Assembly (NCBI RefSeq): GCF_035084215.1 | Contig: NC_090333.1 | Location: 45,942,001-46,006,000, forward strand | Origin: Heptranchias perlo | Taxonomy: Eukaryota | Reading direction: 5' to 3' | Length of the DNA: 64,000 nt | The notes under the pieces: generated by a model | Told to the model about the DNA's origin: nothing | The model's input: only the letters and a program-made list of their open reading frames with translations | The model's database searches: none | Shown: positions 1-27,830 of the stretch, in pieces | How the letters are laid out: every line of letters begins with the position of its first letter | Position numbering within the stretch: position 1 is the stretch's first letter | Translations under genes and position numbers: made by a program

Positions 1-148
1 ACAGACCAACGTTCGCAGCAAATTACCCAGCTTTCAGGAGAACAGCGTCCACGACACCACACAACCCTGCCACGGTAACCTCTGCAAGACATGCCAGATC
101 ATCGACACAGATACCACCATCACATGAGAGGACACCACTCACCAGGTG

Positions 149-1673: not shown

Positions 1674-1690
1674 AATGTGCCTATTAAAAT

Positions 1691-1787: not shown

Positions 1788-1809
1788 AGGAATATCACAC
1801 AATGGCTAA

Positions 1810-2010
1810 CGGCAATTTCTACCACTTGTTTGTGGTGCCATAGGTTGTATTAACTGAGTCCTCATGTGCAACCAGTGTGTATCAGAAAATCACAGGTGCA
1901 CTGTGCATGATTTTCTGTTTATTGAAGTCAATGGACAGAAAATCATGGGCAACACTTCCACCATTGTACATTATACACGGGTGTTGGGCAAAGGCTTGGA
2001 AAATCTACCC
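1810..2010. mobile_element. Decayed palindromic MITE
   Basis: Central hairpin at 1906-1947, CATGATTTTCTGT-ttattgaagtcaatgg-ACAGAAAATCATG, with perfect 13-bp arms. Confidence 0.55.
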
Positions 2011-3439
2011 TTATAAGCCATCATGATAAATGAAACGTATTACTTTTCCAGTCCTTTCCTCTCCTCCTCAAAAACGAAGTCAAACAATTTTCATGAACAC
2101 AGTAGCCCTTTAAACCAGCCAATAGCAGGTCGATGACTGGTATGTGTTAATCTCTTCCTTTGATGTTTCCCTCATTGCTGTTTAGTGTCACACATATGCT
2201 GGCTGCCTTTACCAGTTGGCTCAGGTGAGAGCAGGATTTCACCATGTGAAAAATCAAGAAAGCTAAGCTACTTTGAACCACACTAATGCTCCTATGTGCC
2301 AGCACACCCTGTCATTGAATTTCTTTTCCATTTTCACAACTTTTAATAACCCAGCTGGGTTGCATCTGAAGATTATGATTCTATTTATTGCAGACATCCC
2401 CTAGTCATTAGTAGACTGAGATTAAACAAGAGACTGTTTAATAAAGCATTAAGTATGTTGAGTGACTGGGAACATTAAAAGTAGCACTGTATTTATTGAA
2501 GAGATTTCATTACTTAAAATTGTTACTTATTACATGCTGTCTATTATAATCAACAGCAGTGTTGAATGATTGAGGAAGGATGGTATTTACTATTTGTTCA
2601 TTTGAGAACCACAATATTCACTTTAAATACAAACATTTCACAGTTATTTAGCTCTAATGATATGCTGGATGATAACGTTGACCTTTTTTCCCTCACTATA
2701 GCAGGAACATTTAGTCTTAACGAAGATTCTGCTATAATTCCAGACTAGGGACTGATCGTATCTGAAGCACAGCTCTAAGTGCTGACCCTAAAGAATAAGA
2801 CGTAGGATGTCTAAAATGATGTAGGCACAGCATAACGAATCAGTGACTCAGACAGTTAATCTACCTTCAATAAATGAATCATTCTATCAGACTGGCATCT
2901 CTGTTAAATAGCTCAATTACCAAATATCTACGCCTGTCAAAAATGCAATAAAGTTTCTTACACGTGTACCTACACATTTTATTACTGTTGGGAACGGTGA
3001 AGAGTTTAAGCATCAGACTACAGAAGTTAAAAATATTGAAGTTAAGGGTGAGAAGGGAAGTTAGATGGAACTGTTTTTATACAAAGATACACAAAAGTGA
3101 CCATTGAACTGCACAGTAAATGAGTTCAAGGGGTAATTGGATGTTTTTTAAGAGATATAGGGAAAATTATGTCAGTGAGGACCCATGCTGGATTTTTCAA
3201 TTTCAGGCAAGGCTCCACCTCCAGAGAGATGCTCCATTTTAACTGCTCCCCTGCTTCTTTTCCACCAACTGGGGAAACTTACAATTTCCCCTTGTGAATC
3301 GGTGCACATGCAGCATGTACGTATCTTGTTTTGGTAGTGTTCTTCGTGTTTGTTGCTTGCTACATTTAATGGGCCACATGAGGGGGCAACATTACACAGC
3401 ATCTTTGGAAAGTAAATGAAGAGTTGCTAAAGTGCTGTG

Positions 3440-3760
3440 CATCCTCTATCTGTGATGCCCGACCGAGCTAGCTGTAAAAGTGCTAGTGAGGTACATTGTA
3501 AGGTAGCATTGTGCAATTAAATAAAGTTTGAGTACATTGAACTTGGCAACCGTTCTGAGAATAGCAAATCTCTTCCTCACCCCCCTCAGGTGGGGCACAG
3601 GTTTGATGGCATTCACTCTTGCACCCACCTCCATCCAGCAATCTCTGCCATTGCTTATGACTGGAGGATGGCCTTCAGCTCCAAAAAGCATTCAAATGTG
3701 CTTCAGTGAATGGAGCACTTCTGATTCATGCTCTTGCTCAGCCATTTTGATCTCTTTGCA
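3440..3760 (-). pseudogene. Myb/SANT-like DNA-binding protein remnant (Harbinger accessory ORF type)
   Basis: LFGAEG...WMEVGARVNA...VRKRFAILRTVAK fits the WxxVAxxVNA...KxxxDL trihelix pattern; stop codon and decay upstream. Confidence 0.6.
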
Positions 3761-4859
3761 GTAGCAGAACAGTTTTGAGGAAACCACCAGCTTATCAAGA
3801 GTTGCTGGTGTTAGATAACCTGCCCTTTGACCCCAATGCACACTTAATGCAGTATGCATTATGTGCCAGGCATGCCACAAATTTATGTCAATCAACTGAC
3901 TTCACATTATAGTACAAGACCAACTCACTGCACTGCTGGGCATGTGCAGTGCTGAGGAGCAGTGGTCCCAATGGCACTGTGGTGGGACCATATTATGCTT
4001 GCTTCGAGTCCTACCAGTGTTGAATGATTCACTCATGCTGATTACCAGTGTCCCACACATTTCTTCCTTGAAATACTTTAGCACAGTAGGATATATGCAA
4101 TTTGCTCAGAGTATTTATTAGTTTTTAGCCCCTTAAACCTATCCATTCCCTCTACAATATTGATTTCAAATCATCTATAATATTTGAAGTATTACAAAAA
4201 TTATTAAATTAGTATAATCCTCTTCACTAAATACTTCTAGACACCCACCCCCCACTGGAAAAAAAGTAGCAGAATTACATGATGCATCCAGCAGGAAGGT
4301 TTTCAAGAAAGCTAAGCTCTTGATGGACAGCCCCTTTTCATTTTCTTACAGGTTACAAGGAAAAGTTACCATTATACCTGTGACACATATGTTCGAAGCT
4401 GTCACAGGGAAAAAAAAAGCTGTTTCTTTAATGCCTATGTAGAGTTTTCGATCTACAACAAGACCGAAACTGAAACCTCCCAAGCTTTGTTGACAGTGAA
4501 AGCTTCCTAAGTGCAATTAGGGCTGAAATTCTTCAGACAGCTGGCCACAAGAAAGAGATCACGGTAGTAGAGGAGCAAATTAATGAAAATGTATGCAAAA
4601 GAGAAGTGTACTGTAAATTCTAGAAGGGTACTCAGCCAATTAAAATCCAGGCACAGCAATTTCAAAATTAAGCGGCTCCCTAAGGATCTCTTTATAATGG
4701 CACTTGTCTCATTAAGTTGACTCTAAACCTAGTTGGGAAAATTCTTCCATTCAGACATCAGTTGGAAACAGAGGAGATTGCCATGAGTAGCAGCGCCCCC
4801 CCCCCCCCACCCCCCCCCCCCCAACCAAGCAGGCAAAATCGTCACCCATTCTACATCAG

Positions 4860-5131
4860 ATGGTTATGATAATTGGCAAAGGAACCAAAAGGGAGGTGAG
4901 GAGAACATTGTTTACACAGCGAGTTGTTATAATCTGGAATGCACTCCCTGAAAAAGGAAATAAAAGCAGATTCAATAGTAACTTTCAAAAGGGAATTGGA
5001 TATATACTTGAAAAGGAAAAATGTGCAGGGCTATAGGGAAAGAGCAGGGGAGAGAGACTAATTGCGTAGCTCTTTCAAGGGGCTGGCAGAGACAACATGG
5101 GCCAAATGGCCTCCTTCTGTGCTGTATTCTA
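4860..5131 (+). mobile_element. CR1 LINE 3' fragment
   Basis: FTQRVVIIWNALP-coding end plus 3' UTR ...GGGCCAAATGGCCTCCTTCTGTGCTGTA, shared with 22000-22220. Confidence 0.85.
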
Positions 5132-5478
5132 TCAGGTTGAAAGATGTGGTCATTACTAACTAACTAGATACTTTATCTCTGACCTCTTTGATAAAATCTC
5201 TTAACTGGAGAAAATGGTTTGATATAATCACACTTCAGTTACACCTCATCAGCTTATGATACTACCAAAAAGTTAGGAAAAAGGATCCACATATAACATT
5301 TTTACCCGTTGATTTTCAACCCTGCATCATGGAGCACAGTAATTCTTTATGTTATCCGATAAAGCTTAGAGTGAATTTGACAGTCAAGTAAGTAATGCTA
5401 CAAATGAGATGAAGGCTCATGCATCTCGTGAACACAGAAAGTCATACCTTTCAAATGAGATCCTTATTCAGGTTAGGC

Positions 5479-5516
5479 GTTGGACTATAACTTGGTGTTG
5501 TAAAATTGTTTACAAT
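5479..5516 (+). mobile_element. Extreme 3' terminus of the PLE family (~38 bp)
   Basis: GTTGGACTATAACTTGGTGTTGTAAAATTGTTTACAAT is identical to the end of the copy at ~802-840. Confidence 0.8.
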
Positions 5517-5779
5517 AATTTATAGAAGGCATGACTACTTTACTCTTCATGGAAATGTAATATCTTAATTCCCTTCCGCTCCCCCCTTACCAGTTCCAAG
5601 CAAGTAAAAACTAGTTTGTGATCTTTCTAATTTTACCTTAAGTTCTACTGGATTACATTCTGGGTCACCCACATTTCTCTTGATAGGGTAAAATGCCAAT
5701 AATTTGTAAAGCTCCTTAACTCCAATTAGGATGAAGTTACTCCAATAGATTTACAGTTTTAAACTTTTCCGCCCAATTT

Positions 5780-6125
5780 TATCTCCTTTTCTCCCCCCTT
5801 CTGAAGGTGTTGCTTCAATATGGTTCCATGCGTCCCAGCACTCCCAGTAGCTCACCCAAGTGGCCATTTTTCAAGAGTGAATGAAGTTAGTGAGTGTCAG
5901 CAGGCTATTCAAACATGGAAGGCATGATAGCCAAGCTCAATCCTGTCCTCATTCACCAGCCACATATGTATCCTTTCCAGTCAGAGACTACTAAATTGGC
6001 TTTTTCTCTTCTCTAGCCCAGGGATCCTGAGGCCCATGGCAGCTAAGTTAGCACAGTCCTAGAACCTCATGGTCTATATGACTTAATACCACACTGAGAA
6101 TTGTATCTACCAAGCCACCATGGTA
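5780..6125 (-). mobile_element. Old tRNA-head SINE family copy
   Basis: Colinear similarity to 12395-12680, 21215-21605, 25780-26300, 61850-62240 and, on the opposite strand, 32690-33000 and 62530-62885. Confidence 0.55.
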
Positions 6126-6229
6126 GCTCCAATTGTTATTGTGTAGGGTTCACAATAGAATTGTTTGTAAAAATTAATAATACTTGGAAAATATCAATGA
6201 GTAATTTTGAATAAGTGTCAGGATTTTCT

Positions 6230-6967
6230 TGTTTTCAATTGCTGAACATGGGAATGCTGCTGCCAAATCAGGAGGAGGAGGATCAGCAGCAAGGAAGGCA
6301 GCAAAGACCTGCACAGGCTGCAAGAAGAGGGTGAAGGAGGCAAGAGGCTCAGGCTCAGTATTACAAAGTGGGAGTATTCAGAAATCGAACATCATACCTG
6401 AACCTCACAGAGAAGCAGTATGTAAGATGACTGTGTTTCAACAGTGAGATAGGCACGTACCTGTGACACCTGATAACTGGAGCCCAACACCAGGGCACGC
6501 ACGGCACTATCTGTGGCAGTGAAGATCAGCATGCCTCTAAATGTTTATGCCTCTGGCTCCTTCCTAACTGCTCCTAGTGACATCAGTTAGTTTGCTTGCA
6601 GATGGTGATTTAGCAGGTCCCTAATGCACTGTTTGGAAGTCATCAACAGTTCATTAGCTTCCCCATGGAGTCTGCCAAGTAGGAAGAATGAGCACTGGGA
6701 TTTGCCCGCATTGTTGGATTCCTGAAGGTGCAGGGCATTATAAACTGCATGCATGTAGCCCTGCGTACTCTCCATCATGAACCAGCACTGTTTCTCAACA
6801 GAAAGGACTTTCATTCACTTAATGTTCAACTTGTTTGTGACCTCAGGCAGCGAGTCATGCAGGTCTGTGCCCAGATTCCTGGCAATAGTCATGACACTTT
6901 CATACTGCGCCAGTCCTCAATAGTCAGTTGGTTAGCAGGCTGGCTGCTGGGGAACAAGGGCTATCCC
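6230..6967 (+). pseudogene. PIF/Harbinger (HARBI1-like, DDE_Tnp_4) transposase remnant
   Basis: Motifs ALSVAVKI..LNVYASGSF, QGIINCMHV, FLNRKDFHSLNVQLVCD, PGNSHD and WLLGNKGYP; frameshifted; cut by a LINE tail at ~6968. Confidence 0.9.
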
Positions 6968-7200
6968 TCACCACCACCTGCACGTTCCCATCCAAGTCAC
7001 ACAACATCCTGACTTGGAAATATATCGCCGTTCCTTCATCGTCGCTGGGTCAAAATCCTGGAATTCGCTACCTAATAGCACTGTGGGAGTGTCTTCACCA
7101 CACGGACTGCAGCAGTTCAAGAAGGCGGCTCACCACCATCTTCTCAAGAGCAACTAGGGATGGGCAATAAATGCTGGCCTTGCCAGTGACGCCCACATCT
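6968..7200 (+). mobile_element. 3' tail of a CR1/L2-supergroup LINE, inserted into the Harbinger transposase
   Basis: High similarity to 33512-33742 (GSKSWNSLP...GGGCAATAAATGCTGGCCTTGCCAG). Confidence 0.85.
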
Positions 7201-9009
7201 ACCTTTCTCTTCTTGGATAAGTACACGAGGGCTACTTGTTAGTACAGAACTTAAAAATCAGGGATCAATGATACAAGACATTGAAACGCACGACAAGAGG
7301 TGATCAATGATATAAGAGATTGAGAAACTGGGTCAGACAAACAGTGGCAGACATGATTGCCATCTCTTGACAATAATGGCTATTAGATGCGAGAGCTTGC
7401 ATAAGTGATTTCAGCTTCTTATAAAACCCGAACGGTAGACTTGGCTAGCAGTGCCACCCTAACAAGCTAAATAAAGAAATGAAGATTCAGGAGAAATTTG
7501 AGGGCTGGATGAAACTGTTCCGTGATATGTTTGACACCCGGGTTAGATTTTCTTCCTTTTATATCCAGGTCTAAATATTGTTATCATAAGGGATGATGTT
7601 CAACCTGTAATTTTGAAATTCCATTTCAATGTACAACAGCTATGAATAGATGATAGCTGCTTTCCTATTGTTGGACCCCCCATGTTAGTGCCACTGGCTG
7701 GTGATGTGCAGATCTCGGTAAAAGAATTGGTCTTTTCAGTTGTCTTAGCAAATCCAGCAAGATTATTTAGGAATTGCCACCAGCTGCTAAAAACCTGTGC
7801 ATTGGGAGCCGGCAGTACGAACATGGCAGCACAGTAATATAATATGCTCCAAGTATGCTATTTTGGATGTTCTATCTGCCTCCTGCATCCTCACTAGGGT
7901 TCCTAGTTGATTCTTTTCTCTATCTAGCCTGAGGAAGGAGAGAGCTTCTCACCTGGGCCCATTAGGCATTGGATGCGCAGGTGGCATGCCACTAGAAGAA
8001 GGTCCTGCAAGGACATCAGCTTCACTGAGATGATTGACACTTCAGTCCTTGAGGGCTCCATCGATACAGTCCAAGTCACAACCTGACACCGAGGTAGCAC
8101 AATGTAGGAGTAAGAGATTAGGGTCAAGGGTGAGAAGAGTTTTAACGCAAAGAACAGTCAAGATGATAAATAGCAGTAGTAATAGGGCATAATGAAGGGA
8201 TAATGTGGTAGCAAACAAGTGCAGACAATTTCTTAGGTCGCTTTCTACAAGTGTATGTCCCATTGCCTTGTCCTCAGTGCTCTCAGAGATGTATATTGAA
8301 GTACTAGAGAACAAATCCTTTTTGAATCACTGCCTGATAATTACTTCAGTCAATATAAAGGGCAAGCAAAAGCTCTCAGCTGTGCAATAATTACAGTGCT
8401 CTCTGTCTCGTCAATATTAACTATAACATCCAGGCCAGGGTGTTCACCATTAGATTAGAAATGGAGGTCACAAAAGAGAAGAGTTATCAGTAAATAATAT
8501 GATACTTTACTTGTACCCGTTGTGTAGCGAGGTCTGAGATTCTAGTTGAAGCAGTTTAGTTCAATAACAGAATGGAGTGGGTCTGCTCAGAAAACTTAGC
8601 TTTAATAAACTTTATATAGATGCCATTCAAACCTTTTATACTGAACATATGTGGGGTAAATTTCCTTACCATATTCAGCACATTAGCAGTACAGAAGATG
8701 TTTCAGGCAGGAGAATTGGGCTGAAGCCACTTCTGCCTGATTTCTGCTATTAAAGCACTTCCCAGATTCCATTTTGAACCTTCCCACAATCTGCCACCTA
8801 GCCCAGGTTGGCCTCATTTACATTTATTATAATGAGGGCCAGTGGCGCTACAACTCTGTGTTTTCTGATTTTACACTCCTAATGCACTCTGGCTAACTTA
8901 GACCGGGATCTATAAGATGCAACAGCTGCCAGGATCAGCTGATACAGGTGAAAGTGAGGAGTTTCTGAGCCTGAGGAGTCTGGAGAGTTTCAATAGCGAT
9001 TTCCGCAGT

Positions 9010-9160
9010 TCATAGAATCATACAGCACATAAGGAGGCCATTAAGCCCAGCGTGCCTGTGCCGGCTCTTTGAAAGAGTTATCCAATTAGTCCCACTCCCC
9101 TGCTTTTTCCCCATAGACCTGCAAATGTTTCCCTTATCCAATTCCTTTTTGAAAAAAACA
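9010..9160 (-). mobile_element. CR1 3' UTR fragment
   Basis: CATAGAATCATACAGCAC...GGAGGCCATT...CTCTTTGAAAGAG is the reverse complement of the CR1 tail at ~22140-22220. Confidence 0.85.
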
Positions 9161-9258
9161 ATTTTTTTGCCATTCTACTTACAGACTTCTGACAGAATTA
9201 GACCACTGTCAGATTTTTGGCCCCTACCCCCTGCACTGAGGGCTTCTCAGGGGCAGGA

Positions 9259-10720
9259 ATGGCATTTCCTATGGCCATTCTCCTGTATGCCATTATCATG
9301 GAGGAGAAGGAGCAGCAGCACATGATGGAGCAGAGGAGAGACAGGCAACAGTTAAGGAGATGCAGCCAACAACACAAGTCACAAGAGGTCCTGTCTGGGC
9401 AGTTGTGCACAAGAAGAGTGCACTTTGCCAAAGAGGCTCTGTCAGCCATTGCAAGAGAACCTGCAGCCACATTCATCTGCCTGGAGTACTCTCTCTGTGG
9501 CTAGGAAGGTGATTACTGCCCTCAACTTGTTTTTTTTTCCAAAAATATACTTTATTCATAAAATATCACATTCCAAACATACACAATACAGAGTATACAA
9601 TTTGCAGGTTACATCAAGTACAGTTCAAGGAACACATTGTACATAATTACAGTTCATGACACTCCAGGGTGCCTCATTGCATTACACTCAATACAGATGG
9701 TTGATTACAGATTCATTACAAGTACATTACAGATTCATTACAGGTACATTACATCAATTTGAGTTCTACATTCTGCCCAGGGGGGTTTTTCCCTGATTTC
9801 AGCCCCTCGGTATACAATGGTGGGAAGGCTCTAAACGGTTGCCTTTCCCCACAGAGTCCCTGAGCACATAGTCCTGGACCTTGGAACATGCCAGTCTGCA
9901 ACACTCGGTCGAGGACAGCTCCTTGCACTGGAAGACCAACAAGTTTCGGGCAGACCAAAGAGCGTCTTTCACCGAGTTGATTGTCTTCCAGCAGCAGTTG
10001 ATGTCTGTCTCGGTGTGCATCCCTGGGAACAGCTGGTAGAGCACAGAATCCTGTGTTACGGAACTGCTCAGGACGAACCTGGACAAATACCACTGCATCT
10101 CTCTCCAGACCTTCTTTGCAAAGGCACATTCCAGAAGGTGATGGGTGACGGTCGCATCCCCACCGCAGCCTCCTCAGGGACAACACGCGGTAGCGCTGAG
10201 AGTCCGGCAGTGCATGAAGGATCTGACGGAAAGGGCCCTTCTCACCATCAGCCAAGCTATGTCTTGGTGATTGTTTGAAAGCTCTGGCGATGAGACGTTC
10301 TGCCAAATGACATTGACAGTCTGCTCGGGGAACCAACCGACAGGATCCACCATCTCCTTTCCCCTCAGGGTCTCGAGGACGTTATGTGCGGACCACTTGC
10401 TGATCGCCTTGTGGTATTTCAGGCAGCCACAGGAGACCTGTGCAATATCAGCCAGCTAGCAGTATGGGCACGCATTCATCAAGTGACTGACACCCTTTAA
10501 GGTGAGCTGGGGAATTCATCACCATCTCATCACTGCAAGGCAGCTGCAAGATAGGGCCATTCAGTTTTGCGGGATTGCTAGCTTCCCCAAGGTCCAGGGT
10601 GAAAACACTGGCACCCACATTGCATTGCATTGCGAGCTCCCACTGAACAATCCCTCAACTTCATTAACAGAGGATCTTCTACTCCAAGGAGATTGGATGA
10701 ATGCAGGGGAGAGGGGTTGG
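9259..10720 (+). pseudogene. Harbinger transposase remnant split by a Tx1-like LINE
   Basis: The left part ends ...LSVARKVITALNL at ~9528 and resumes at ~10417 with FQAATGDLCNISQLAVWARIHQVTDTL, then ASFPKVQG..GTHIAL. Confidence 0.85.
9529..10415 (-). mobile_element. Tx1/L1-clade LINE, 5'-truncated 3' end with zf-RVT region and poly(A)
   Basis: Minus strand encodes CP.GGCGG..TVTH.LLECAFAKKVW and KDALWSARNLLVF; AATAAA (reverse complement at 9551-9556) precedes a poly(A) at ~9530-9538; there is a short tandem duplication in the 3' UTR at ~9703-9752. Confidence 0.85.
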
Positions 10721-10949
10721 GTTTTACGGTGTGGGCAGGTCGCAACATGTGGGCTGGGACAGGCTCGATGGACCAGCTGGTCTTTTCCTGTCCTCTTTTT
10801 CCGTATGTTTTCAGATGAGGCACCTGCACCCAATGAACAATTGTCCCTGTCCCCAGCCAGGCATCACGTGGCCTTCCATCAGCAGGGAAGGCACATAAGG
10901 ATATTTAGTCCTGCAAGAGCTGCAGCGCAGGCCTGCTTCCTGAACTTTC

Positions 10950-11610
10950 TTGCCAGGAATTTCCTTGGGATTTCTCCCGATCGGCCACTGTAACTTTGGC
11001 AGAACATTGGTGGAAACCCGTTTATGCAAACTTCAGGTGGCATCAGAGACCTGATGTTACAGATCTGCTGACAGAACCCCTTAAAGTAAATAAAAGATTA
11101 TTAAAGCTTTGCATGCAGCTCAGGCTTATATTACATGATGAAGAGTTAGGGAGCTTTTGAACCATGGAGCAGCGTGAAGGAAGTGTGTTGGTTACCATGG
11201 TGCCCAAGGAAAAAAAATAAACAGTGGTAGTGCCAAACAAAATTATTTTTCTTTATGTTCTTTGGGGATCCAGGCATCAATCCCAGCCTGGACCCCCACA
11301 TGGGCGTACTTCCATCTCGGCCAGCAAGATATACCTGGTCTGACTAGACATGCCTCCAATTGACCATATACCGAGCCTCCTCACTGAAAGCCTGAGGCAC
11401 AGAATCTCCAACATTTAGATACCTCACCCATAGCCCAACCCCACCCCCGAAAACGATGGCCATGTTTGTGACAAGTGGGACAGGTTTTTAAACAGTACAG
11501 TGCAGACACATATTACATCTTCCCAGGGTTTTAATTCAGCTTAGCATGGTCCTTCTCAGGGAGTTTCTGGACATTCGGATTTTTGGAAGCTGCAGCACAA
11601 TTATATCCCC
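10950..11610. mobile_element. Non-autonomous Harbinger-type element (longer relative of the MITEs at 26866 and 43116)
   Basis: Left end GGAATTTCCTTGGGATTTCTCCCGATCGGCCACTGTAACTTTGGC matches the reverse complement of 43190-43240; the right boundary is uncertain. Confidence 0.45.
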
Positions 11611-12394
11611 CACAGTTGGCCCAGGTATTGCGTTTCTTCAGTGCTTCTATTACGTCAAATGCACTTTCAAAATGACGAAATGTAGCCAAGTATAGTATAA
11701 GAAGTGGGTAAAGAGGATTGCACCAATTACTTTATTTGAGTTACTATTACTAAAATTTATGGTTACAGTTAATAGATTACAGGAAATGTAATTAACATGC
11801 ATGTGGGGGAAATCCTACATTATTAATGAGAATAAGTCTTTATAAATGATTTCACTTTGGATCCAAGCATCGGATCCCAGTGTGTTAAATTATTCCTTAT
11901 TGGCCATTATTTAAACTCCCAGTCAAGGTGTAAACGTTTCCCTCCCAAAAGTCATTTATGTTTCGAATGCTCAGCAACAGTCTCGATACTGTCAGAATTC
12001 TATGTTTATTTTACCCACAGAAATCTGCTTGTTTGACAACCCACTATTCTGTACTTCACCACCTCTTGAAATGACAGAATTTCTTACATTTACTTTACTT
12101 GCAAAGCATTTCCTTTCAGTTAGACTGTTACTAAAGAAGTGATTAAGTGTGCTCGTTACCAATAATAGAAAACGTTTTATTGGGCTTTTGACATTCCAAG
12201 TAATTCAATGGATTGGAAATGGGACAGGGGGAAAACATTTAATCATAAAATAAATCTTACCAGCAAATCCGAGAGACCTCCTGCAATCCGGCACCCGAGG
12301 AAAGACTACAGCTATCTTCTGATTGGGTCTGAAGCTCTTTGTTGTGGCCTACAAATAACTGCTTGACCTACCAGCACACATTTTATTTTCCAAT

Positions 12395-12680
12395 TTTCTC
12401 CCCTCCTCTCTTGGGTGCTGACCCTTGCTGGGATACAGTTCCATGACGCTGTACCTCATACAGAGGCTACTCTTCATATGTGAATTCAGAGAGTGAATGC
12501 CAACAAGTAATTCAACTGTGGTGGGGCATCGCAGAGAAGTCCAACCCTGCCCACACAAAACATCCACAAAAGTACTTTAAAGCAGAAGACACTGGATAAA
12601 GATCAGGAGCAGGGACCTTTGCTGAATTTGTTCCCTCCCTAGTCCAAGAGTATAGAGGCCAATTATAGTACACCTGATAT
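12395..12680 (-). mobile_element. Old SINE family copy abutting the satellite
   Basis: GATCAGGAGCAGGGA...CCCTAGTCCAAGAG..GAGGCCAATT resembles ~62050-62140 and ~21450-21510. Confidence 0.55.
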
Positions 12681-12689
12681 TGGAAAGAA

Positions 12690-15600
12690 AAATGGGGTGG
12701 GGTGTAAAAAGGAGTGAGGTGGAAAACATAAAATGGGGCGCGGTGTAAAACAAGGCGGGGTGGAAAACATAAAACGAGGCAGGGTGTAAAACGGGGCGGG
12801 GTGTAAAATATAAAACATGGTGAGGTGGAAAACATAAAACGGGGCGGAATGTAAAACGTAAAATGGGGCGGGGTGTAAAATGTAAAATGAGGTGGAGTGT
12901 AAAATTTAAAATGTAAAACGGGGCGGGGTGTAAATTGTAAAACGGGGCGGGGTGTAAAATGTAAAACGAGGTGGAGTATAAAATGTAAAATGTAAAACAG
13001 GGCGGGGTGTAAAATATAAAATGTAAAACAGGGCGGGGTGTAAATTGTAAAACGGGGCGGGGTGTAAAATGTAAAACGAGGTGGAGTATAAAATGTAAAA
13101 TGTAAAACAGGGCGGGGTGTAAAATATAAAATGTAAAACAGGGCGGGGTGTAAAATGTAAAATGTAAAACAGGGCGGGGTGTAAAATGTAAAATGTAAAA
13201 CAGGGCGGGGTGTAAAATATAAAATGTAAAACAGGGCGGGGTGTAAAATATAAAATGTAAAACGGGGCGGGGTGTAAAATATAAAATGTAAAACGGGGCG
13301 GGGTGTAAAATATAAAATGTAAAACGGGGCGGGGTGTAAAATGTAAAACGGGGCGGGGTGTAAAATGTAAAATGTAAAACAGGGCGGGGTGTAAAATGTA
13401 AAATGTAAAACAGGGCGGGGTGTAAAATATAAAATGTAAAACAGGGCGGGGTGTAAAATGTAAAATGTAAAACGGGGCGGGGTGTAAAATATAAAATGTA
13501 AAACAGGGCGGGGTGTAAAATATAAAATGTAAAACAGGGCGGGGTGTAAAATATAAAATGTAAAACAGGGCGGGGTGTAAAATGTAAAATGTAAAACGGG
13601 GCGGGGTGTAAAATATAAAATGTAAAACAGGGCGGGGTGTAAAATATAAAATGTAAAACAGGGCGGGGTGTAAAATGTAAAATGTAAAACAGGGCGGGGT
13701 GTAAAATGTAAAATGTAAAACGGGGCGGGGTGTAAAATATAAAATGTAAAACAGGGCGGGGTGTAAAATGTAAAATGTAAAACGGGGCGGGGTGTAAAAT
13801 ATAAAATGTAAAACAGGGCGGGGTGTAAAATGTAAAATGTAAAACGGGGCGGGGTGTAAAATATAAAATGTAAAACAGGGCGGGGTGTAAAATATAAAAT
13901 GTAAAACAGGGCGGGGTGTAAAATGTAAAATGTAAAACAGGGCGGGGTGTAAAATATAAAATGGGGCGGGGTGTAAAATATAAAATGTAAAACGGGGCGG
14001 GGTGTAAAATATAAAATGTAAAACAGGGCGGGGTGTAAAATATAAAATGTAAAACAGGGCGGGGTGTAAAATATAAAATGTAAAACAGGGCGGGGTGTAA
14101 AATGTAAAACGGGGCGGGGTGTAAAATGTAAAATGTAAAACAGGGCGGGGTGTAAAATGTAAAATGTAAAACGGGGCGGGGTGTAAAATGTAAAATGTAA
14201 AACAGGGCGGGGTGTAAAATATAAAATGTAAAACGGGGCGGGGTGTAAAATGTAAAATGTAAAACGGGGCGGGGTGTAAAATGTAAAACGAGGTGGAGTA
14301 TAAAATGTAAAATGTAAAACAGGGCGGGGTGTAAAATATAAAATGTAAAACAGGGCGGGGTGTAAATTGTAAAACGGGGCGGGGTGTAAAATGTAAAACG
14401 AGGTGGAGTATAAAATGTAAAATGTAAAACAGGGCGGGGTGTAAAATATAAAATGTAAAACAGGGCGGGGTGTAAAATGTAAAATGTAAAACAGGGCGGG
14501 GTGTAAAATGTAAAATGTAAAACAGGGCGGGGTGTAAAATATAAAATGTAAAACGGGGCGGGGTGTAAAATATAAAATGTAAAACAGGGCGGGGTGTAAA
14601 ATATAAAATGTAAAACGGGGCGGGGTGTAAAATATAAAATGTAAAACAGGGCGGGGTGTAAAATATAAAATGTAAAACGGGGCGGGGTGTAAAATATAAA
14701 ATGTAAAACGGGGCGGGGTGTAAAATATAAAATGTAAAACGGGGCGGGGTGTAAAATATAAAATGTAAAACGGGGCGGGGTGTAAAATATAAAATGTAAA
14801 ACGGGGCGGGGTGTAAAATATAAAATGTAAAACGGGGCGGGGTGTAAAATGTAAAACGGGGCGGGGTGTAAAATGTAAAATGTAAAACAGGGCGGGGTGT
14901 AAAATGTAAAATGTAAAACAGGGCGGGGTGTAAAATATAAAATGTAAAACAGGGCGGGGTGTAAAATGTAAAATGTAAAACAGGGCGGGGTGTAAAATAT
15001 AAAATGTAAAACAGGGCGGGGTGTAAAATATAAAATGTAAAACAGGGCGGGGTGTAAAATGTAAAATGTAAAACGGGGCGGGGTGTAAAATATAAAATGT
15101 AAAACAGGGCGGGGTGTAAAATATAAAATGTAAAACAGGGCGGGGTGTAAAATGTAAAATGTAAAACAGGGCGGGGTGTAAAATATAAAATGTAAAACAG
15201 GGCGGGGTGTAAAATGTAAAATGTAAAACGGGGCGGGGTGTAAAATGTAAAATGTAAAACAGGGCGGGGTGTAAAATATAAAATGTAAAACGGGGCGGGG
15301 TGTAAAATGTAAAATGTAAAACAGGGCGGGGTGTAAAATATAAAATGTAAAACGGGGCGGGGTGTAAAATGTAAAATGTAAAACGGGGCGGGGTGTAAAA
15401 TGTAAAATGTAAAACAGGGCGGGGTGTAAAATATAAAATGTAAAACGGGGCGGGGTGTAAAATGTAAAATGTAAAACAGGGCGGGGTGTAAAATATAAAA
15501 TGTAAAACGGGGCGGGGTGTAAAATGTAAAATGTAAAACAGGGCGGGGTGTAAAATATAAAATGTAAAACGGGGCGGGGTGTAAAATGTAAAATGTAAAA

Positions 15601-18600
15601 CAGGGCGGGGTGTAAAATATAAAATGTAAAACGGGGCGGGGTGTAAAATATAAAATGTAAAACGGGGCGGGGTGTAAAATATAAAATGTAAAACGGGGCG
15701 GGGTGTAAAATGTAAAATGTAAAACGGGGCGGGGTGTAAAATGTAAAATGGGGCGGGGTGTAAAATGTAAAATGTAAAACAGGGCGGGGTGTAAAATATA
15801 AAATGTAAAACGGGGCGGGGTGTAAAATATAAAATGTAAAACGGGGCGGGGTGTAAAATGTAAAATGTAAAACGGGGCGGGGTGTAAAATATAAAATGTA
15901 AAACGGGGCGGGGTGTAAAATGTAAAATGTAAAACAGGGCGGGGTGTAAAATGTAAAATGTAAAACGGGGCGGGGTGTAAAATATAAAATGTAAAACGGG
16001 GCGGGGTGTAAAATATAAAATGTAAAACGGGGCGGGGTGTAAAATATAAAATGTAAAACAGGGCGGGGTGTAAAATATAAAATGTAAAACAGGGCGGGGT
16101 GTAAAATATAAAATGTAAAACAGGGCGGGGTGTAAAATATAAAATGTAAAACGGGGCGGGGTGTAAAATATAAAATGTAAAACAGGGCGGGGTGTAAAAT
16201 GTAAAATGTAAAACAGGGCGGGGTGTAAAATATAAAATGTAAAACAGGGCGGGGTGTAAAATGTAAAACAGGGCGGGGTGTAAAATATAAAATGTAAAAC
16301 GGGGCGGGGTGTAAAATGTAAAACAGGGCGGGGTGTAAAATGTAAAATGTAAAACGGGGCGGGGTGTAAAATATAAAATGTAAAACAGGGCGGGGTGTAA
16401 AATGTAAAATGTAAAACAGGGCGGGGTGTAAAATATAAAATGTAAAACGGGGCGGGGTGTAAAATATAAAATGTAAAACAGGGCGGGGTGTAAAATGTAA
16501 AATGTAAAACAGGGCGGGGTGTAAAATATAAAATGTAAAACGGGGCGGGGTGTAAAATATAAAATGTAAAACAGGGCGGGGTGTAAAATATAAAATGTAA
16601 AACGGGGCGGGGTGTAAAATATAAAATGTAAAACGGGGCGGGGTGTAAAATATAAAATGTAAAACAGGGCGGAGTGTAAAATGTAAAATGTAAAACGGGG
16701 CGGGGTGTAAAATATAAAATGTAAAACAGGGCGGGGTGTAAAATGTAAAATGTAAAACGGGGCGGGGTGTAAAATATAAAATGTAAAACGGGGCGGGGTG
16801 TAAAATGTAAAATGTAAAACAGGGCGGGGTGTAAAATGTAAAATGGGGCGGGGTGTAAAATATAAAATGTAAAACGGGGCGGGGTGTAAAATGTAAAATG
16901 GGGCGGGGTGTAAAATGTAAAATGTAAAACGGGGCGGGGTGTAAAATATAAAATGTAAAACGGGGCGGGGTGTAAAATGTAAAATGTAAAACGGGGCGGG
17001 GTGTAAAATATAAAATGTAAAACAGGGCGGGGTGTAAAATATAAAATGTAAAACGGGGCGGGGTGTAAAATGTAAAATGGGGCGGGGTGTAAAATGTAAA
17101 ATGGGGCGGGGTGTAAAATGTAAAATGTAAAACGGGGCGGGGTGTAAAATGTAAAATGTAAAACGGGGCGGGGTGTAAAATATAAAATGTAAAACAGGGC
17201 GGGGTGTAAAATGTAAAATGTAAAACGGGGCGGGGTGTAAAATGTAAAATGGGGCGGGGTGTAAAATATAAAACGGGGCGGGGTGTAAAATGTAAAATGA
17301 GGTGGGGTGTAAAATGTAAAATGGGGCGGGTGTAAAATGTAAAATGAGGTGGGGTGTAAAATATAAAACGGGGCGGGGTGTAAAATGTAAAATGAGGTGG
17401 GGTGTAAAATGTAAAATGAGGTGGGGTGTAAAATGTAAAATGAGGTGGGGTGTAAAATATAAAACGGGGCGGGGTGTAAAATGTAAAATGAGGTGGGGTG
17501 TAAAATGTAAAATGAGGTGGGGTGTAAAATGTAAAATGAGGTGGGGTGTAAAATATAAAACGGGGCGGGGTGTAAAATGTAAAATGAGGTGGGGTGTAAA
17601 ATGTAAAATGGGGTGGGGTGTAAAATGTAAAATGGGGCGGGGTGTAAAATGTAAAATGAGGTGGGGTGTAAAATGTAAAATGGGGTGGGGTGTAAAATAT
17701 AAAACGGGGCGGGGTGTAAAATGTAAAATGAGGTGGGGTGTAAAATGTAAAATGGGGTGGGGTGTAAAATATAAAACGGGGCGGGGTGTAAAATGTAAAA
17801 TGAGGTGGGGTGTAAAATGTAAAATGGGGTGGGGTGTAAAATGTAAAATGGGGCGGGTGTAAAATGTAAAATGGGGCGGGGTGTAAAATGTAAAATGGGG
17901 CGGGTGTAAAATGTAAAACGGGGCGGGTGTAAAATGTAAAATGAGGTGGGGTGTAAAATGTAAAATGAGGTGGGGTGTAAAATGTAAAATGAGGTGGGGT
18001 GTAAAATGTAAAATGAGGTGGGGTGTAAAATGTAAAACGGGGCGGGGTGTAAAATATAAAACGGGGCGGGGTGTAAAATGTAAAATGAGGTGGGGTGTAA
18101 AATGTAAAATGAGGTGGGGTGTAAAATGTAAAATGAGGTGGGGTGTAAAATATAAAACGGGGCGGGGTGTAAAATGTAAAATGGGGTGGGGTGTAAAATG
18201 TAAAATGGGGCGGGGTGTAAAATATAAAACGGGGCGGGGTGTAAAATGTAAAATGAGGTGGGGTGTAAAATGTAAAATGAGGTGGGGTGTAAAATGTAAA
18301 ATGAGGTGGGGTGTAAAATATAAAACGGGGCGGGGTGTAAAATGTAAAATGGGGTGGGGTGTAAAATGTAAAATGAGGTGGGGTGTAAAATGTAAAATGG
18401 GGCGGGGTGTAAAATGTAAAATGAGGTGGGGTGTAAAATGTAAAATGAGGTGGGGTGTAAAATGTAAAATGGGGTGGGGTGTAAAATGTAAAATGGGGTG
18501 GGGTGTAAAATATAAAACGGGGCGGGGTGTAAAATGTAAAATGAGGTGGGGTGTAAAATGTAAAATGAGGTGGGGTGTAAAATGTAAAATGAGGTGGGGT

Positions 18601-18780
18601 GTAAAATGTAAAATGAGGTGGGGTGTAAAATGTAAAATGGGGCGGGTGTAAAATGTAAAATGAGGTGGGGTGTAAAATGTAAAATGGGGCGGGTGTAAAA
18701 TGTAAAACGGGGCGGGTGTAAAATGTAAAACGGGGCGGGTGTAAAATGTAAAACGGGGCGGGTGTAAAATGTAAAACGGG
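12690..18780. repeat. G-rich minisatellite/satellite of about 200 units: 31-bp C[AG]GGGCGGGG-TGTAAAA-T[AG]TAAAA-TGTAAAA (left) and 24/23-bp units (right)
   Basis: Directly visible tandem periodicity, built from a 10-nt G-box plus 2-3 copies of the heptamer TGTAAAA; degenerate at the left edge. Confidence 0.99.
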
Positions 18781-18835
18781 AGCCAAATTTCAATCAGCTG
18801 TTTTTCGCCTGGCACTAAAAGTTAAAATTACTCCC
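18781..18835. mobile_element. Right terminal arm of a palindromic MITE, continuous with the satellite
   Basis: CTGTTTTTCGCCTGGCACTAAAAGTTAAAATTACTCCC matches both arms of the MITE at 25973-26107. Confidence 0.75.
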
Positions 18836-19919
18836 ATCGAGCCGCCATTTGATGAGAACCTTTAGCAAAATGAGAGAGAACGCAGAGGACATTGGGGATG
18901 GTGAAGAAACAGGAGGGCTCCAACAGTTGGCTACAGTCAGAGATCTTTGGCTGCAACTCATTGACGAAGCTTCAGCTGAACAATCCCTGCTCCCCAGCAC
19001 GAACAGTCATATCCAACTTCTCTCCTAGTCCATCCACCCTCAAATATACTACATCTTACCAAAGACCAACACTGATATTCATGTTAGCTAACATTGTAGA
19101 GTCACCATCTACTAGGGAACATATTGCACACAAAAGATTTTAAAAAGGATCATAATGTTCATGCCTCATTCAACTTAAGAAGCAGTGCGGACAGTTTTTT
19201 TGCCACCAAAGGAACACCTATTCCCCGATGCAAAGGTCAGAAAAAAGGTAGAGGAACACATTGGGCTTGGATTCGACTCCCTTTATATTGCCACGGGAAT
19301 TCCAAGGCAAGGTCTCCACCTACATTCCTGCTCCATTATGGATCATGAATTGCACTCATTAATGGGGAGCAAGAGAGTCAAAAATCTATCCTATCACATC
19401 CTATGCAGTCATCCTCTCTGCCCTTAAAAACCCAACGATACTTAATAAGTTAAGGGACTCATTAACATCATTGATTGGTTTCCGAGAAGATTTTAATTGA
19501 CTGTTAAAATTTACTGCTGACTGATCTATAGCCACAAACATAACCCAGTTCTAGTTCAATGCATTTACAACCACATTACCACCAAAAAGCACACCTACCA
19601 CCGAGCAAATAGAAAGTCCAACTCACAGCCTCAACAAATCTTACAACAAACAAAAGCTAAAATGCACCATGCTAAAAAGAATATATTGTAACTAAACAAA
19701 TCCAGCAACATGATCCATAGCACTAATACTATGTAGTGAAGAACCAAAATGTGACACATTTTAATGCCACCATTTGCAGCTGTACAGAATTGCTGTGATG
19801 GTGATGCACGAGGAAGGTAGGTGTCTTTTTGATGTGCCAGACACAAGTCAAAATTTGATTACTGTACAACTACTGGCTGCTGTCTCCACACTGGGGGTGC
19901 CTGATAATGCTCCGATCAC

Positions 19920-21194
19920 ATTTCCGCCCCTGCCACAATACAGAAACGGCCCTTATCAAATGATATCCTATGTGACAGTGACGATGGTAAACTATCCCTC
20001 CTCATCCTTCTCGATCTGTCTGTGGCCTTTGACACGGTTGACCAATCCATCCTCCCCCGGCGTCCAGCTGGGTGGGACTGCGCTCGTCTGGTTCCATTCT
20101 TATCTATCCAGTTGTAGCCAGAAAATCATCTGCAATGGCTTCTCTTCCTGCTCCCGCACCGTTACCTCTGGAGTCCCCCAAAGATCCATCCTTGGCCCAC
20201 TCTTAGTTCTCATCCACATGATGCCCCTCAGCAACATCATTCGAAAACACGTCAGATTCCACATGTATGCTGATGACACCCAGCTCTACCTTACAATCAC
20301 CTCCCTCGACCCATCCACTGTCTCTCATTTGTCACATTGCTTGTCTGACATCCAGTCCTGGAAGAGCAAAAATTTCCTCCAACTAAATATTGGGAAGACC
20401 GAAGTCATTGTCTTTGGTCCCCGCCACAAACTCCATGCCCTAGCCATGTACTCCACCCCTCTCCCTGGACACAGTATGAGGCTGAACCAGACCGTTCACA
20501 ACCTTGGCAACCTATTTAGCCCTGAGATGAGCTTCCGACCACATATCCGCTCCATCACCAAGACCATCTACTTTCTGCCTCCTTAACATCGTCTGTCTCC
20601 GCCCCTGCCTCAGCTCATCTGCTGCTGAAACCCTCATCCATGCCTTTGTTACCTCCAGACTGGACTATTACAATGGTCTCCTGGCCGCCCTCCCTTCTTC
20701 CACCCTTCATAAACTTGAGCTCATTCAAAACTCTGCTGCCCATGTCCTAACTTGCACCAAGTCCTGTTCTCCCATCACCCCTCTGTCCCGAAACGCCTCG
20801 ATTTTAAAATTCTCATCCTTTTTTTCAAATCCCTCCATGGCCTCACCCCTCTCTATCTCTGTAGCCTCCTCCAGCTCTACAACCCTCCGAGATCTCTGCG
20901 CTCCTCCAATTCTTGCCTCTTACACAGCCCCAATTTTAATCGCTCCACCATTGGTGGCCGTGCCTTCAGCTGCTTAGGCCCTAAGCTTTGGAATTCTCTC
21001 CCTAAACCTCTCTGCCTCTCTGTCCTCCTTTAAGACGCTCTTTAAAACCTATCTCTTTGACCAAGCTTTTGGTCATCTGCCCTAATATCTCCTTACATGG
21101 CTCAGTGTTAAATTTTTTTTGAAAACGCTCCTGTGAAGCGCCTTGGGACGTTTTACTATGTTAAAGGCGCTATATAAATGCAAGTTGTTGTTGT
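19920..21194 (+). mobile_element. L2-clade LINE, 5'-truncated, frameshifted RT and 3' tail
   Basis: FRPCH.TETALIK, LLDLS.AFDTVD, WFHSYLS, GVPQ.SILGP, YADDTQLY and LWNSLP; tail ...GGCGCTATATAAATGCAAG(TTG)n. Confidence 0.93.
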
Positions 21195-21214: not shown

Positions 21215-21605
21215 CTCTTCCGCTAATTTTCTCCCTTCAACTGCCAAAGGCATTGAGTCACGGTAGCATATAGTTCCACGGATGCCATCTTCCCTCCAGG
21301 ATCTCACACAACTGACCATTTCACTTGTGCGAATATTGAATGGTGACAGGCCAAATGATCATGGAGAAGCATCACAACCAAGTCCAGTCCTGTTAACATG
21401 CAATGTCCACACACATGCACCTTTTTCAACAGAAGTCACTGGATAGCAATCAGGAACAGGAGTCCTTGTTGAGTTACACCCACCGTAGCCCAGACATACT
21501 GATACCAATTGTAATGCTCCTTCTTCTCTCCAGGTTAATATCAGCTAACTAAAGACAGACTGGGGATTGAACTTGGGACCTTCATGGTTTGCCTGGTCAG
21601 TACTT
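21215..21605 (-). mobile_element. Old tRNA-head SINE family copy
   Basis: The reverse-complement head contains a B-box-like GTTCAATCC (GGTCCCAAGTTCAATCCCCAGTC); the body is shared with other copies. Confidence 0.6.
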
Positions 21606-22828: not shown

Positions 22829-24948
22829 GGCCCGAAATTTCCTGGAAAGGTGTGAATGGTGACGTACCCCATTAATTATGCCAATCGTCTAGTTATGAAC
22901 TTACTCCAAAATTTCCCGGAAAAGCTTTTTGAATATGCTGCAGCAAGTGTAATGGGAGGTTAGAGACCTCAGAAGCATTGCTGCCAATGGCTAACCCTGA
23001 AAACCTTCACATGCCATTACAACAACTTGTTGAATAAAAGTTTTTCTGATGTCGTTTGTTCGATAAAAGTTTAATAAAGCTGTTTCATTTTCATTGACGT
23101 TGTTCACTGATTGGAAGTTTAATTTCACTTCTTCATGAATAAAAGTTCTATTGTTTGTTACCATATCTGTTGTCCCTCGAGTTTGCAGCCCTCTAGGGAT
23201 CAGTGCACGACGTCATTGTTTCGGACTTCCTCATGCCACTTGATTCCGTGGGTTTGACATGGTGGGGCGGGGTGGTGGGGGGGGGGGTTTACGAGTGTTG
23301 GGGGTTATCACCAGCAATCATCTGTGCTCCCAGCTACTATCTGGCTGCCCTGGTGGATGTGAGCGTGGATTCCTCTGAGGGCCACCACCCCTGGGTGCGG
23401 GGACATGCAGGTCGGGATCCTTAGGTTCCACAGGCATCTTGTCTTTCAAGTGTAGACTAAGCCTTTCTCGAAGGGCCAAATTTTGCAGTGTGCAGCAGAC
23501 CACCATAATCTTTGTCACTTTATCAGGGGTGAACTGTAGGACCCCCCCACCACCCCGCTCACTCCCCACCCCCCAATCTGTCCAGGCACCTAAAGTGAAC
23601 TTTCAGCAACCCAATGGTTCTCTCCACCACATGCCGGGTAGCCGCGTGTGCGTGGTTTTACCTCTCCTGTGCTGCATTGTTGTTGAGATGGGACAGTGTC
23701 ATCAACCAAGGCCTCAGGGGGCTTGTCCCCCAGGACCCATTCTCCTCCTTGTCTCTCCCTGCTGCATAATTCATAGATGGCAGAATGCTGAAGGACGAAG
23801 GTGTTGTGACCGATTCCCCGATGCTCAGAATTTACATGCAGAGCCCTTTGTTAGGCATCACAGATATTTTGCACATTTAGCGAGTGGTAACCCTGCCTGT
23901 TTATTAATGTGACAGGATCCTTGAGTGCAGCCTTCAGCGACACCTGGATACCATCGACAACCCCCGCACAATGTGGAAGCCAGCAAGCATGTGGAAGTTG
24001 ATAGCCCTGACTCTTTGTTCTGCAGGTCCGTTGCCCTGCGGAAGAGGGTATCTGTCACCTGTTGAATGCAGGCTCTCACAGCTCACTGGCTGATGTTGCA
24101 GGGATCTCCAGTGGATGACTGGAAGGAACTGCAGCCATAGAAATTGAGGGCCATGCTTACCTTCATTTCAACTGATAAGACCCTGTGGGAAGTAAACTAT
24201 GGCTTCAGGTCTTCCTGCAGCATTTCACAGAAGTAGCCAATTGCTGCTCTGGTGCAATGCAGTCTGTGCATGCAAAGCTCCTCTGACAGCTGCTGGTATG
24301 ATATGTGTTCCCTGTACACTTTCTGGGGGTGGGGACTAGTAGCGAGTCCAGTGCAGTCTCCAGCCATGGTGCCTCATGCACCGTGCATCCTGCCTCTGTT
24401 CCTCCTCCTCTTCCTCATCCCTGATAATACAGAATGGGAGAACGCTCAGTGGAAAGGCCGTGGCAATCCTTTGACCTTTAATGCCTAGAAAAAGGTAGGG
24501 GTCCTGGAAGTATTGCCTTCAGACACTAACAGGACTCTGAGCGGCAAAACTGAAGATAACAAAGAAGCAGAGAAAAAAATCTGAGAGATCAATTCCAGAT
24601 TGCAAAGACCAAGCTCCACAGCTTTAATGGTCTCCCAGGATGAGAATCATGTGAGAGTCATAAATCATGTCGTTACCAGGTGACCAAGGGCACACCTGCG
24701 CCATTATTTTTCAGCCTAAATGACTGTGGTGAGAAAACTAGTGTAAATCCAGGGAATATGCGATCACAGTGAGTGGAGCTATGATAATCAACTTTTCATG
24801 GTGAAGGTTTCAGCAAAGCAGTGCAAAAGTCATAGGATATTATGGCATGATGTTAATAGTGACGTAACTCGCTTGTACCATCATTCCTGGGACTTTTGCT
24901 CTGAAATACGACATTCTGATGCTGGAATTTTCCAGGAAATTCCTGCCC
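22829..24948 (-). mobile_element. Complete-ended PIF/Harbinger element (transposase remnant only)
   Basis: TIRs GGCCCGAAATTTCCTGGAAA / GGGCAGGAATTTCCTGGAAA (17/20 match); 3-bp TSD AAT at 22826-22828 and 24949-24951. Confidence 0.85.
23290..24470 (-). pseudogene. Harbinger transposase remnant
   Basis: Fragments ALNFYGCSSFQSSTGDPCNISQ, CIQQVTDTLF and CLD..GG.LQFTPDKVTKIMVVCCTLQNLA; many frameshifts. Confidence 0.85.
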
Positions 24949-25779: not shown

Positions 25780-26300
25780 TTTCTCTCTTTCTCTGCTTTC
25801 CTGGTAGCAGTGACTCTCACTGGGGCATGATTCTGTGAGTTCAGGAATTCCGTTACTGTAAAGTGCCCATTCCTTATGTGTATCCAGACAGTGAATGCTG
25901 GCAAGCTACTATTCTGCAGCGGGCATCAAAACCAAGCCCATCCTGTCCTCACCTGAAGGCCACACATCTGAAGGGTAATTTTAAGTTTTATTGCTGGGCG
26001 AAAAACAGGCGAAAGCTAATCGGCAGCTTGTTGGACGAGGTGTAAAATGGGCTGTCGATTCGGTATCACCAGTTTTTTGCCCAGACATAAAAGTTAAAAT
26101 GTTCTCCTTACAATTTCCAGCAAGATTTGCTGGATAATGATTAGAAGGGAGAACACAAAATGATTTTTCCTTCTCTACCTGAGAGCCCTGAAGCCAATTG
26201 TAACATCCTAAATACTAGCCTAACCGAAATCAGTTAACTCAACACAGATTGGAAATCAAACCTGGGACCTTCCTGTTCTATATGGCTCAGTATAACACTA
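25780..26300 (-). mobile_element. Old SINE family copy interrupted by a MITE
   Basis: Head at ~26250-26295 (reverse complement GAGCCATATAGAACAGGAAGGTCCCAGGTTTGATTTCC); body similar to the other copies. Confidence 0.55.
25973..26107. mobile_element. Palindromic MITE (~135 bp)
   Basis: Long imperfect inverted arms GGGTAATTTTAAGTTTTATTGCTGGGCGAAAAAC... / ...GTTTTTTGCCCAGACATAAAAGTTAAAATGTTCTCC; the centre contains GAGGTGTAAAATGGG. Confidence 0.75.
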
Positions 26301-26414
26301 TCAGTACCTTAATTACGCTATTAAAGAAAGGTTTCACAGAAGTGATTGAAATCAGTGGCAGATAAGCTAAAATCAATTCTGCAGCATTTGGTGGCAGGCT
26401 CACGTCTGAGACTC

Positions 26415-27830
26415 CTATAGAACCATGGAGGTACATAAGGAGACCATTTGGCCCATCGTGTCTGTACCAGCTCTTTGGTAGAGAAATTTAAAACTAATCC
26501 CACTTCCTGCTCCTTTCCTATAGCAATGTCTTTTCCTCTGCTTTAAATATTCATCCCAATAGTCCCTTGAAAGATACAACAGTTTTCTGCTTCAAAGGTT
26601 CCCTGTGGCAAAGCATTCCATGCCCCAAGCCCCAACAACTTTCTGTGTACAGAGATTTCTCCTAATCTCTCTTCTCACACCCTAGTGATAACTGAAAATT
26701 GCTGAACCCTCATTATGACTCTCCAAACAGAGGAAATAGCTTTTCTCTAATTTCCCTATCAAAATCCTTTAGAATTTTAAAAACCTCTATTAAATCTCCT
26801 CTTGGTTGTCTCTGCTCCAGTGGAAATAGTCCCAGTGTCTCATGTCTCTCCCGGTATTCTTCTATGGAGTTGAATTTAGATGGGGATGCTCCTGATCATC
26901 CACCATAACATAGGCTGAAGGTCCAGGTAAACCCTGGAGAAATGGCAGAAGCCTCATTTACTCTGGTACTCTGGGTTTTCTGTGGATCTTCTGCCGAAGT
27001 TATGGCGTTGGATTGGGAGAACCCCTGCAGAGATTCAACTTGTATAATTTTAATGCCCTTTCTATAATGGGGCTCCCAAACCTGCACATTGTACTCTTAC
27101 TATGGCCTAACCAATGTTTTCTATGAATTGATCATTACTCCTCTACTCTTGTATTCTATGCCCCTATTTATGAAACCAAAGATTTTATTGGCCTTCTTTA
27201 TAGCTTTATCTAACTTGACTTGCATTTTCAGGGAATAATGTATTTGAGCCCCTAGGTCTCTCTGTTCATCCACACTCTTCAGTGTCTTTCTATTTAGTAT
27301 ATACTGCCATTCCCTGTTTTTTTCTTACAGAATGTGTTACCTCATGCTTATCCGCAGTAAGTTGCATCTACCACTTGTTTTCCCATTCTGCCAATCTGCT
27401 TATGACTTCCTGAAGCCTTTTACAGTCCTCCGCACTGTGTGAAACCACCACTTTTGTGTCATCAGAATATTGAGATTGTGTTTCCTGTACCAGAGTCCAA
27501 ATCATCTAAAGATACTGAGAACAAAAGTGAACCCATCTTTGACCTCTGGGGTACCCCACTTCCAATCCAAGCAACATCCATTTACCTTAACTCTTTTTTT
27601 CTTGTCTGACAACCAACTTTCTCTCCATGTTTCTACATTTCCTATTATATCATACACCTGAATCTTCCTAACAAATTTCTTGTGAGACACCTTACCAAAT
27701 GCTCTCTGAAAATATACATTATATTTACTTCAGTCCCTTTATTTATTCAATCAATCACTTCTGCAAAAAATTCCATTAAATTTGTCAAACATGACTTAGA
27801 TTTAACAAATCCATGTCTTTGGATAATCGA
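26415..27830 (-). mobile_element. Old CR1 LINE fragment (RT to 3' UTR)
   Basis: Minus-strand remnants W.ESWLSDKKKRVKVNG and QVWEPHYRK; CR1 tail at ~26420-26480. Confidence 0.8.
26866..27042. mobile_element. Harbinger-type MITE inside the CR1
   Basis: Ends GGAGTTGAATT...AGATTCAACTTG flanked by TAT on both sides; the right half is similar to 43180-43240. Confidence 0.6.

Follow-up and report, generated by a model that had tools for sequence, protein, structure and literature searches.

The 64,000-nucleotide stretch of the Heptranchias perlo genome analysed here (NCBI RefSeq assembly GCF_035084215.1, contig NC_090333.1, positions 45,942,001 to 46,006,000 of the forward strand; hereafter the window) holds a tandem array at 12693-18776 that runs directly into a single arm of a short palindromic element. 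We propose that this array likely expanded at its present site, out of a word of 17 bp within its own copy of the element, the other arm of which was likely deleted, a reading to which we assign a probability of roughly 0.7. The array is a minisatellite, with one locus known here, and the element belongs to a multi-copy family with the word in its inner part. Because the arm is multi-copy, ends sharply and has the core word directly inward of it in 19 contigs, the array unit very likely derives from the element.

Structure of the array

The array spans 6,084 bp, its length as assembled, and comprises 218 units, which are 17-31 bp long. The 31-bp length is the commonest, with 126 units, and there are 79 units of 24 bp, 10 of 23 bp, two of 17 bp and one of 18 bp, with 30 unit variants in all. 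A unit consists of a G-box and TGTAAAA, which make up the 17-bp core, followed by none, one or two more 7-bp words, and all 218 units fit this scheme or a one-base variant of it. The original prediction had called the array a satellite, a term that overstates the case, as one locus is shown and the units are of minisatellite size; head-to-tail units within the range of about 10-100 bp, an array of kilobase size and the presence of variant units are all as in a minisatellite. Along its length the array divides as follows:

12693..12918, plus strand: old array edge, with diverged 17-, 18-, 23/24- and 31-bp units, some as 17+24 dimers
12919..17229, plus strand: 31-bp domain of about 4.3 kb, mostly 31-bp units (17-bp core and two 7-bp words)
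17230..18776, plus strand: 24-bp domain (core and one 7-bp word), with 23-bp variants at the right end

The array is thus polar, with unique, old units on the left and then 31-bp, 24-bp and finally 23-bp units rightwards. Nine of the 11 unique units begin within the leftmost 230 bp (eight in 12693-12918 and the ninth at 12919), the five old-edge units compared with the modal 24-mer differ from it at one to seven positions, and the G-box at this edge retains the GAGG form of the element family. An exact 289-bp block of 10 units occurs twice, at 12943 and at 14265, and the longest run of identical units is 10, against a maximum of eight in 200 shuffles of unit order. The ratio of observed to expected CpG is 2.26 in the array and 0.33 elsewhere in the window, a retention that fits a recent expansion.

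The G-rich strand of the array has a mean G4Hunter score of 0.99, and we considered whether G-quadruplex formation might drive its growth. Four-tract G-quadruplex motifs number zero in the array with loops of at most 7 or at most 12 nucleotides and 26 with loops of at most 16, and short loops are what destabilises variants of the CEB1 and CEB25 minisatellites (PMC5491262). Since short loops are needed and the array holds no four-tract motif at loops of up to 12, quadruplex drive is unsupported, and we rejected its canonical form as the main cause. Open frames of 2,000 codons on the minus strand over the array were likewise rejected as genes, being a by-product of the stop-free repeat, and the array has no gene or function linked with it.

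The palindromic element and its family

As the original prediction had it, the last unit of the array passes without a gap into the arm, here CGGG and an arm sequence ending at 18835, and this junction is also found in contigs. The arm and the one two-armed copy recognised in the window are:

18777..18835, plus strand: surviving arm of the palindromic element, 59 bp (CGGG and a 55-bp arm)
25971..26107, no strand assigned: two-armed sibling copy, with one core word at 26031-26047, sitting inside a repeat that we take to be SINE-like (SINE, short interspersed element)

The sibling is a palindrome of 137 bp whose arms are complementary at 41 of 59 positions, and it folds as a single DNA hairpin (-30.8 kcal/mol, z -6.9), with none of 200 shuffles equally stable. 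Its description as a palindromic MITE (a transposable element of miniature size with inverted repeats) with a single word stands, except that the element starts at 25971 and not at 25973. The arm beside the array, which had been thought the same as that of the sibling, is related to it but only 68-82% identical, matching 31 of 38 positions in the left arm and 26 of 38 in the right; a separate comparison gave local matches of 30/34 to the left arm (E 1.5e-7 in the window) and 28/36 to the right. Allowing up to two mismatches, GGGTGTAAAAYGGG has 118 matches in the window where 1.3 are expected, and 117 of these lie in the array and the remaining one, at 26038, in the sibling. When the 17-mer of the sibling is set against the heads of eight array units, 11-14 of 17 positions match. 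Frames over the sibling copy have no Pfam match, and an Rfam scan of 25800-26500 returned only three weak matches, each far below threshold. Relative to two empty copies of the SINE-like repeat, the sibling insertion brings three extra bases with poorly matched sides (CTG against TTA), and the direct repeat around its word agrees at only three of four bases; for PIF/Harbinger-type elements a 3-bp target site duplication is given in PMC9179366.

Public-run contigs of four organisms, A (H. perlo), B, C and E, were aligned to both array flanks at 80% likeness; 19 of the 24 runs listed, which had small shares, were left out. Summed contig depth on the arm, a measure that does not equal copy number, is 435 in H. 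perlo, 138 in B, 353 in C and 56 in E, and that of the single-copy flank is about 10. The sequence past 18835/18836 is unrelated among the contigs (loose-end agreement 0.42-0.43) and so marks the element end. Directly inward of the arm, 19 H. perlo contigs give a majority line with GCGAGGTGTAAAATGGG, at an agreement of 0.70, and 12 organism C contigs start TAAAAC at the position corresponding to the word. The family therefore carries the G-box/TGTAAAA motif as far as this check was run, and these contigs, together with a match of 14 of 17 positions to a unit head, support the earlier proposal that the inner motif of the MITE was the source of the array unit. The unit-to-arm junction is in register with the family word.

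Short (137 bp), non-coding, bounded by terminal inverted repeats and multi-copy with defined ends, the element has these properties in common with MITEs, for which PMC12054243 gives a size range of about 100-800 bp; the array-bearing copy has one arm only. Pattern scans gave no match in metagenome contigs or in viral contigs. We found no description of this shark element in the literature searched, and it may be catalogued in subscription papers or repeat libraries, which lay outside that scope.

The original prediction had further placed seed and product 7 kb apart, with the copy at 25971-26107 itself seeding the array. This copy does lie 7 kb off and contains the one match to the word that the window has outside the array, but the array has its own arm, identical to that copy at just the 26/38 and 31/38 positions given above, the family is multi-copy, and the flanks of the two copies are unrelated. 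As the array adjoins an arm of its own, whose junction with the flank also occurs in a related organism, the 26-kb copy is better described as a diverged sibling than as the seed, and the probability of the latter is close to negligible.

Other stretches of the window also show palindromic or element-like ends. Four stretches with similar ends, bounded by GGG..ATTT and AAAT..CCC, at 46542-47222, 57517-58198 and 60103-60794 (about 680-690 bp) and at 22829-22917 (89 bp), resemble additional non-autonomous elements, and the arm is absent from all four (scores 14-24 against 52). More short palindromes lie at 30169-30330 (66-bp arms, 74%) and 34453-34548 (32-bp arms, 91%), the latter with relatives at 21139-21194 and 47014-47068.

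Junctions and likely origin of the array

Both junctions of the array are matched with 0 differences by contigs of an H. perlo run, possibly from the same sample. The flanks are:

12459..12676, no strand assigned: left flank, an interspersed repeat of SINE-like kind, truncated at 12676
18836..19127, plus strand: right flank, a short low-copy stretch and then a multi-copy repeat (from depth and loose ends)

The left-flank repeat, presumably SINE-like as is the host of the sibling, is multi-copy in three organisms and aligns to window copies at about 21300-21600 and 25850-26300, which extend some 90-100 bp further; no more than about 15 bp separates the point where it breaks off from the start of the array. 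One H. perlo contig covers 12440-12750 without a difference, so this junction is real. No left arm was found in 1-12692, consistent with the predicted lack of one near 12690 (best local score 25, with a mean of 24 and a maximum of 33 for shuffled arms and 52 for the positive control), and the array at this locus is not enclosed by both element ends. An organism C contig, seen in two runs, differs from 12587-12676 at nine of the 90 aligned positions and beyond them adds 844 and 102 unlike letters, and its match length, depth and position beside a low-depth contig make it the likely ortholog. Since it continues for 844 unlike bases beyond 12676, the other arm and the rest of the SINE-like repeat were likely lost by deletion in the array-bearing copy.

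At the right junction, an organism C contig of 397 bp spans 35 letters of the arm and 128 of the flank and then runs 232 letters leftwards unbroken; the H. perlo contig there stops 26 letters into the array. Contigs of this kind break at identical repeats, so a uniform array is probably absent from this locus in organism C. This points to an old insertion of the element, common to both H. perlo and organism C, with deletion and expansion in the H. perlo lineage. An organism B contig aligns over just 20 letters at the arm and was therefore not counted as bridging.

The same junctions bear on whether array and arm might be adjacent by chance, or the array an assembly artefact. The word is short and simple and the array length is that of the assembly, but the array stands exactly in register with the family word, both junctions recur in independent contigs with 0 differences, and ordered variant domains are unlike the product of collapse or stutter, all of which makes this explanation very improbable.

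The domain pattern is plain in the array itself; the processes that may have produced it, and their order, we infer. An element copy would have inserted before the split of H. perlo and organism C, as the likely ortholog suggests. Slippage most likely duplicated the 17-bp word within this copy, and more slippage, of the 7-bp TGTAAAA tail, would have given rise to the 24- and 31-bp units. A deletion would have removed the left arm together with the remainder of the adjoining SINE-like repeat, probably 0.8 kb or more, and recent block duplications, with blocks spread by unequal exchange or conversion, would have produced the uniform 31- and 24-bp domains, with old units kept at the left edge. 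For minisatellites born in mobile elements, slippage is described as coming first, followed by conversion or unequal exchange (PMC6947457). With only one end left, the array-bearing copy is no longer a transposase substrate.

Several observations weigh against this course. The direct repeat, with three of four bases alike, is shorter than the 5-10 bp that the Haber-Louis model calls for. The family evidence comes from 30-letter loose ends, with a further 360 and 174 loose ends undisplayed, and does not amount to a full consensus; in organisms B and E, at four contigs each, the word is not clearly readable inside the arm. The putative left ortholog in organism C falls within a repeat, its orthology being deduced from the features named above, the loose parts of contigs from organism C were not displayed letter by letter, and the 397-bp contig is missing from the 32 of 282 left-flank pieces listed. 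Finally, organism C contigs match unit-like sequence at both reference ends and extend past them, and one H. perlo contig repeats the G-box/TAAAA word at a different place, away from the locus, which together suggest that short arrays may be older than this locus.

These last two observations also favor the main rival explanation, in which an element subfamily already held and spread a short internal array, as miDNA4 and DTC84 do, and the present copy later expanded and lost its arm, as does the finding that the 17+24 dimers of the old edge reach the divergence seen between the flanks of different species. The sibling copy, however, has one word, and depth over the last array unit in H. perlo (11.5 vs 10.4) is that of single-copy sequence, although short repeat contigs were possibly filtered out of this count; we give such a subfamily a modest chance.

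Two further possibilities concern the manner in which the left arm was lost. The array and the loss could stem from one event, to which we allow a small chance, if a cut at the centre of the hairpin cost the element its left arm and the DNA beside it, and repair synthesis, stuttering on the central 17-bp word, seeded the array. An array from another locus could instead have been copied in at break repair via the common word, taking the place of the left arm and the adjoining DNA at once. The break in the SINE-like repeat within about 15 bp of the array start and the 137-bp hairpin, a plausible break site, would suit this second possibility, but no donor array is known, and the unique units at the left, being diverged, suggest long residence, leaving it a slim chance.

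Surrounding repeats and known systems

The window as a whole is repeat-rich animal DNA with many pieces of long interspersed elements (LINEs). We scanned 150 of its 303 non-LINE frames of at least 55 amino acids against Pfam, and two matched, one as part of a DDE transposase and the other as part of a LINE-type esterase, with no host exon among them; a splice-site scan of the window likewise gave no recognisable exon. The first of these matches belongs to a decayed DDE_Tnp_4 transposase gene at 6150-7010 on the plus strand (match at 6692-7009, E 2.6e-11, profile positions 2-86 of 158), which is interrupted at about 6969 by a LINE-like piece and which we take to be of Harbinger type. Autonomous PIF/Harbinger-type elements code for a DDE transposase and a Myb-like protein. 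No ends shared between this remnant and the palindromic element are shown within the window. Frames in the right flank at 18837-19127 (plus strand) resemble, we presume, a Harbinger-type transposase end, and the repeat there may be the far end of the 6.2-7.0 kb remnant; neither Pfam, with no match, nor Atlas, with hits under 0.9, confirms or supports these assignments. Frames at 23662-23787 on the minus strand, which have no Pfam match, presumably resemble a broken transposase piece. At 50921-53592, two LINE pieces that face opposite ways and are about 67% identical make up an imperfect inverted repeat of 2.7 kb. Harbinger has been reported absent from elephant shark and untested in other cartilaginous fish (PMC9179366).

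Tandem repeats arising from the interior of such elements have been described in several systems. In Xenopus, the Xstir repeat comes from a MITE interior and occurs as free element, array and composite forms (Hikosaka and Kawahara 2004, as described in PMC12628747 and listed in PMC6947457). It shares with the present case a tandem repeat derived from internal MITE sequence, but it is a genome-wide family formed via the joining of two nearby elements, whereas here there is one locus with a 17-bp core and one arm. The miDNA4 element of Xenopus tropicalis has its motif once in most copies and expanded in some, and its arrays lose the terminal repeats (Scalvenzi and Pollet 2014, as described in PMC12628747 and PMC12054243); the likeness is a single internal motif that expanded into an array without full terminal repeats. 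It differs in being of Tc1/mariner type with a proposed capture of an existing repeat, while the unit here is the element's own word, and in ends that decay by mutation, while here the arm seems to have been lost by deletion. DTC84 of Donax trunculus (PMC3879986) and Tetris of Drosophila virilis, whose TIR-220 forms kilobase-size arrays with units of about 220 bp (PMC4079207), are also non-autonomous inverted-repeat elements with arrays from internal repeats; in both, however, the arrays are a family trait with longer units, and here a single array-bearing copy is seen. Single-locus minisatellites are known, too, from motifs in Alu, B1 and long terminal repeat elements (PMC6947457), and these resemble the present array in having a single locus and a motif in an interspersed repeat; they differ in that the host here is a DNA-type palindrome and the flanking direct repeat falls below 5-10 bp.

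In conclusion, the birth of repeats from such elements is already known in frogs, clams, flies and mammals, and the H. perlo array is an ordinary new example of it. What it offers is a clean case, easy to read, in which a tandem array arose from a mobile element: it has a seed word, recent domains beside an old edge, and relatives that allow dating. It would carry greater weight only if one-armed, array-bearing copies recur genome-wide, tying hairpin breakage to repeat birth; were the single break event true, such copies would form a class that recurs across shark genomes and would provide a natural series for watching the break-induced birth of tandem repeats.

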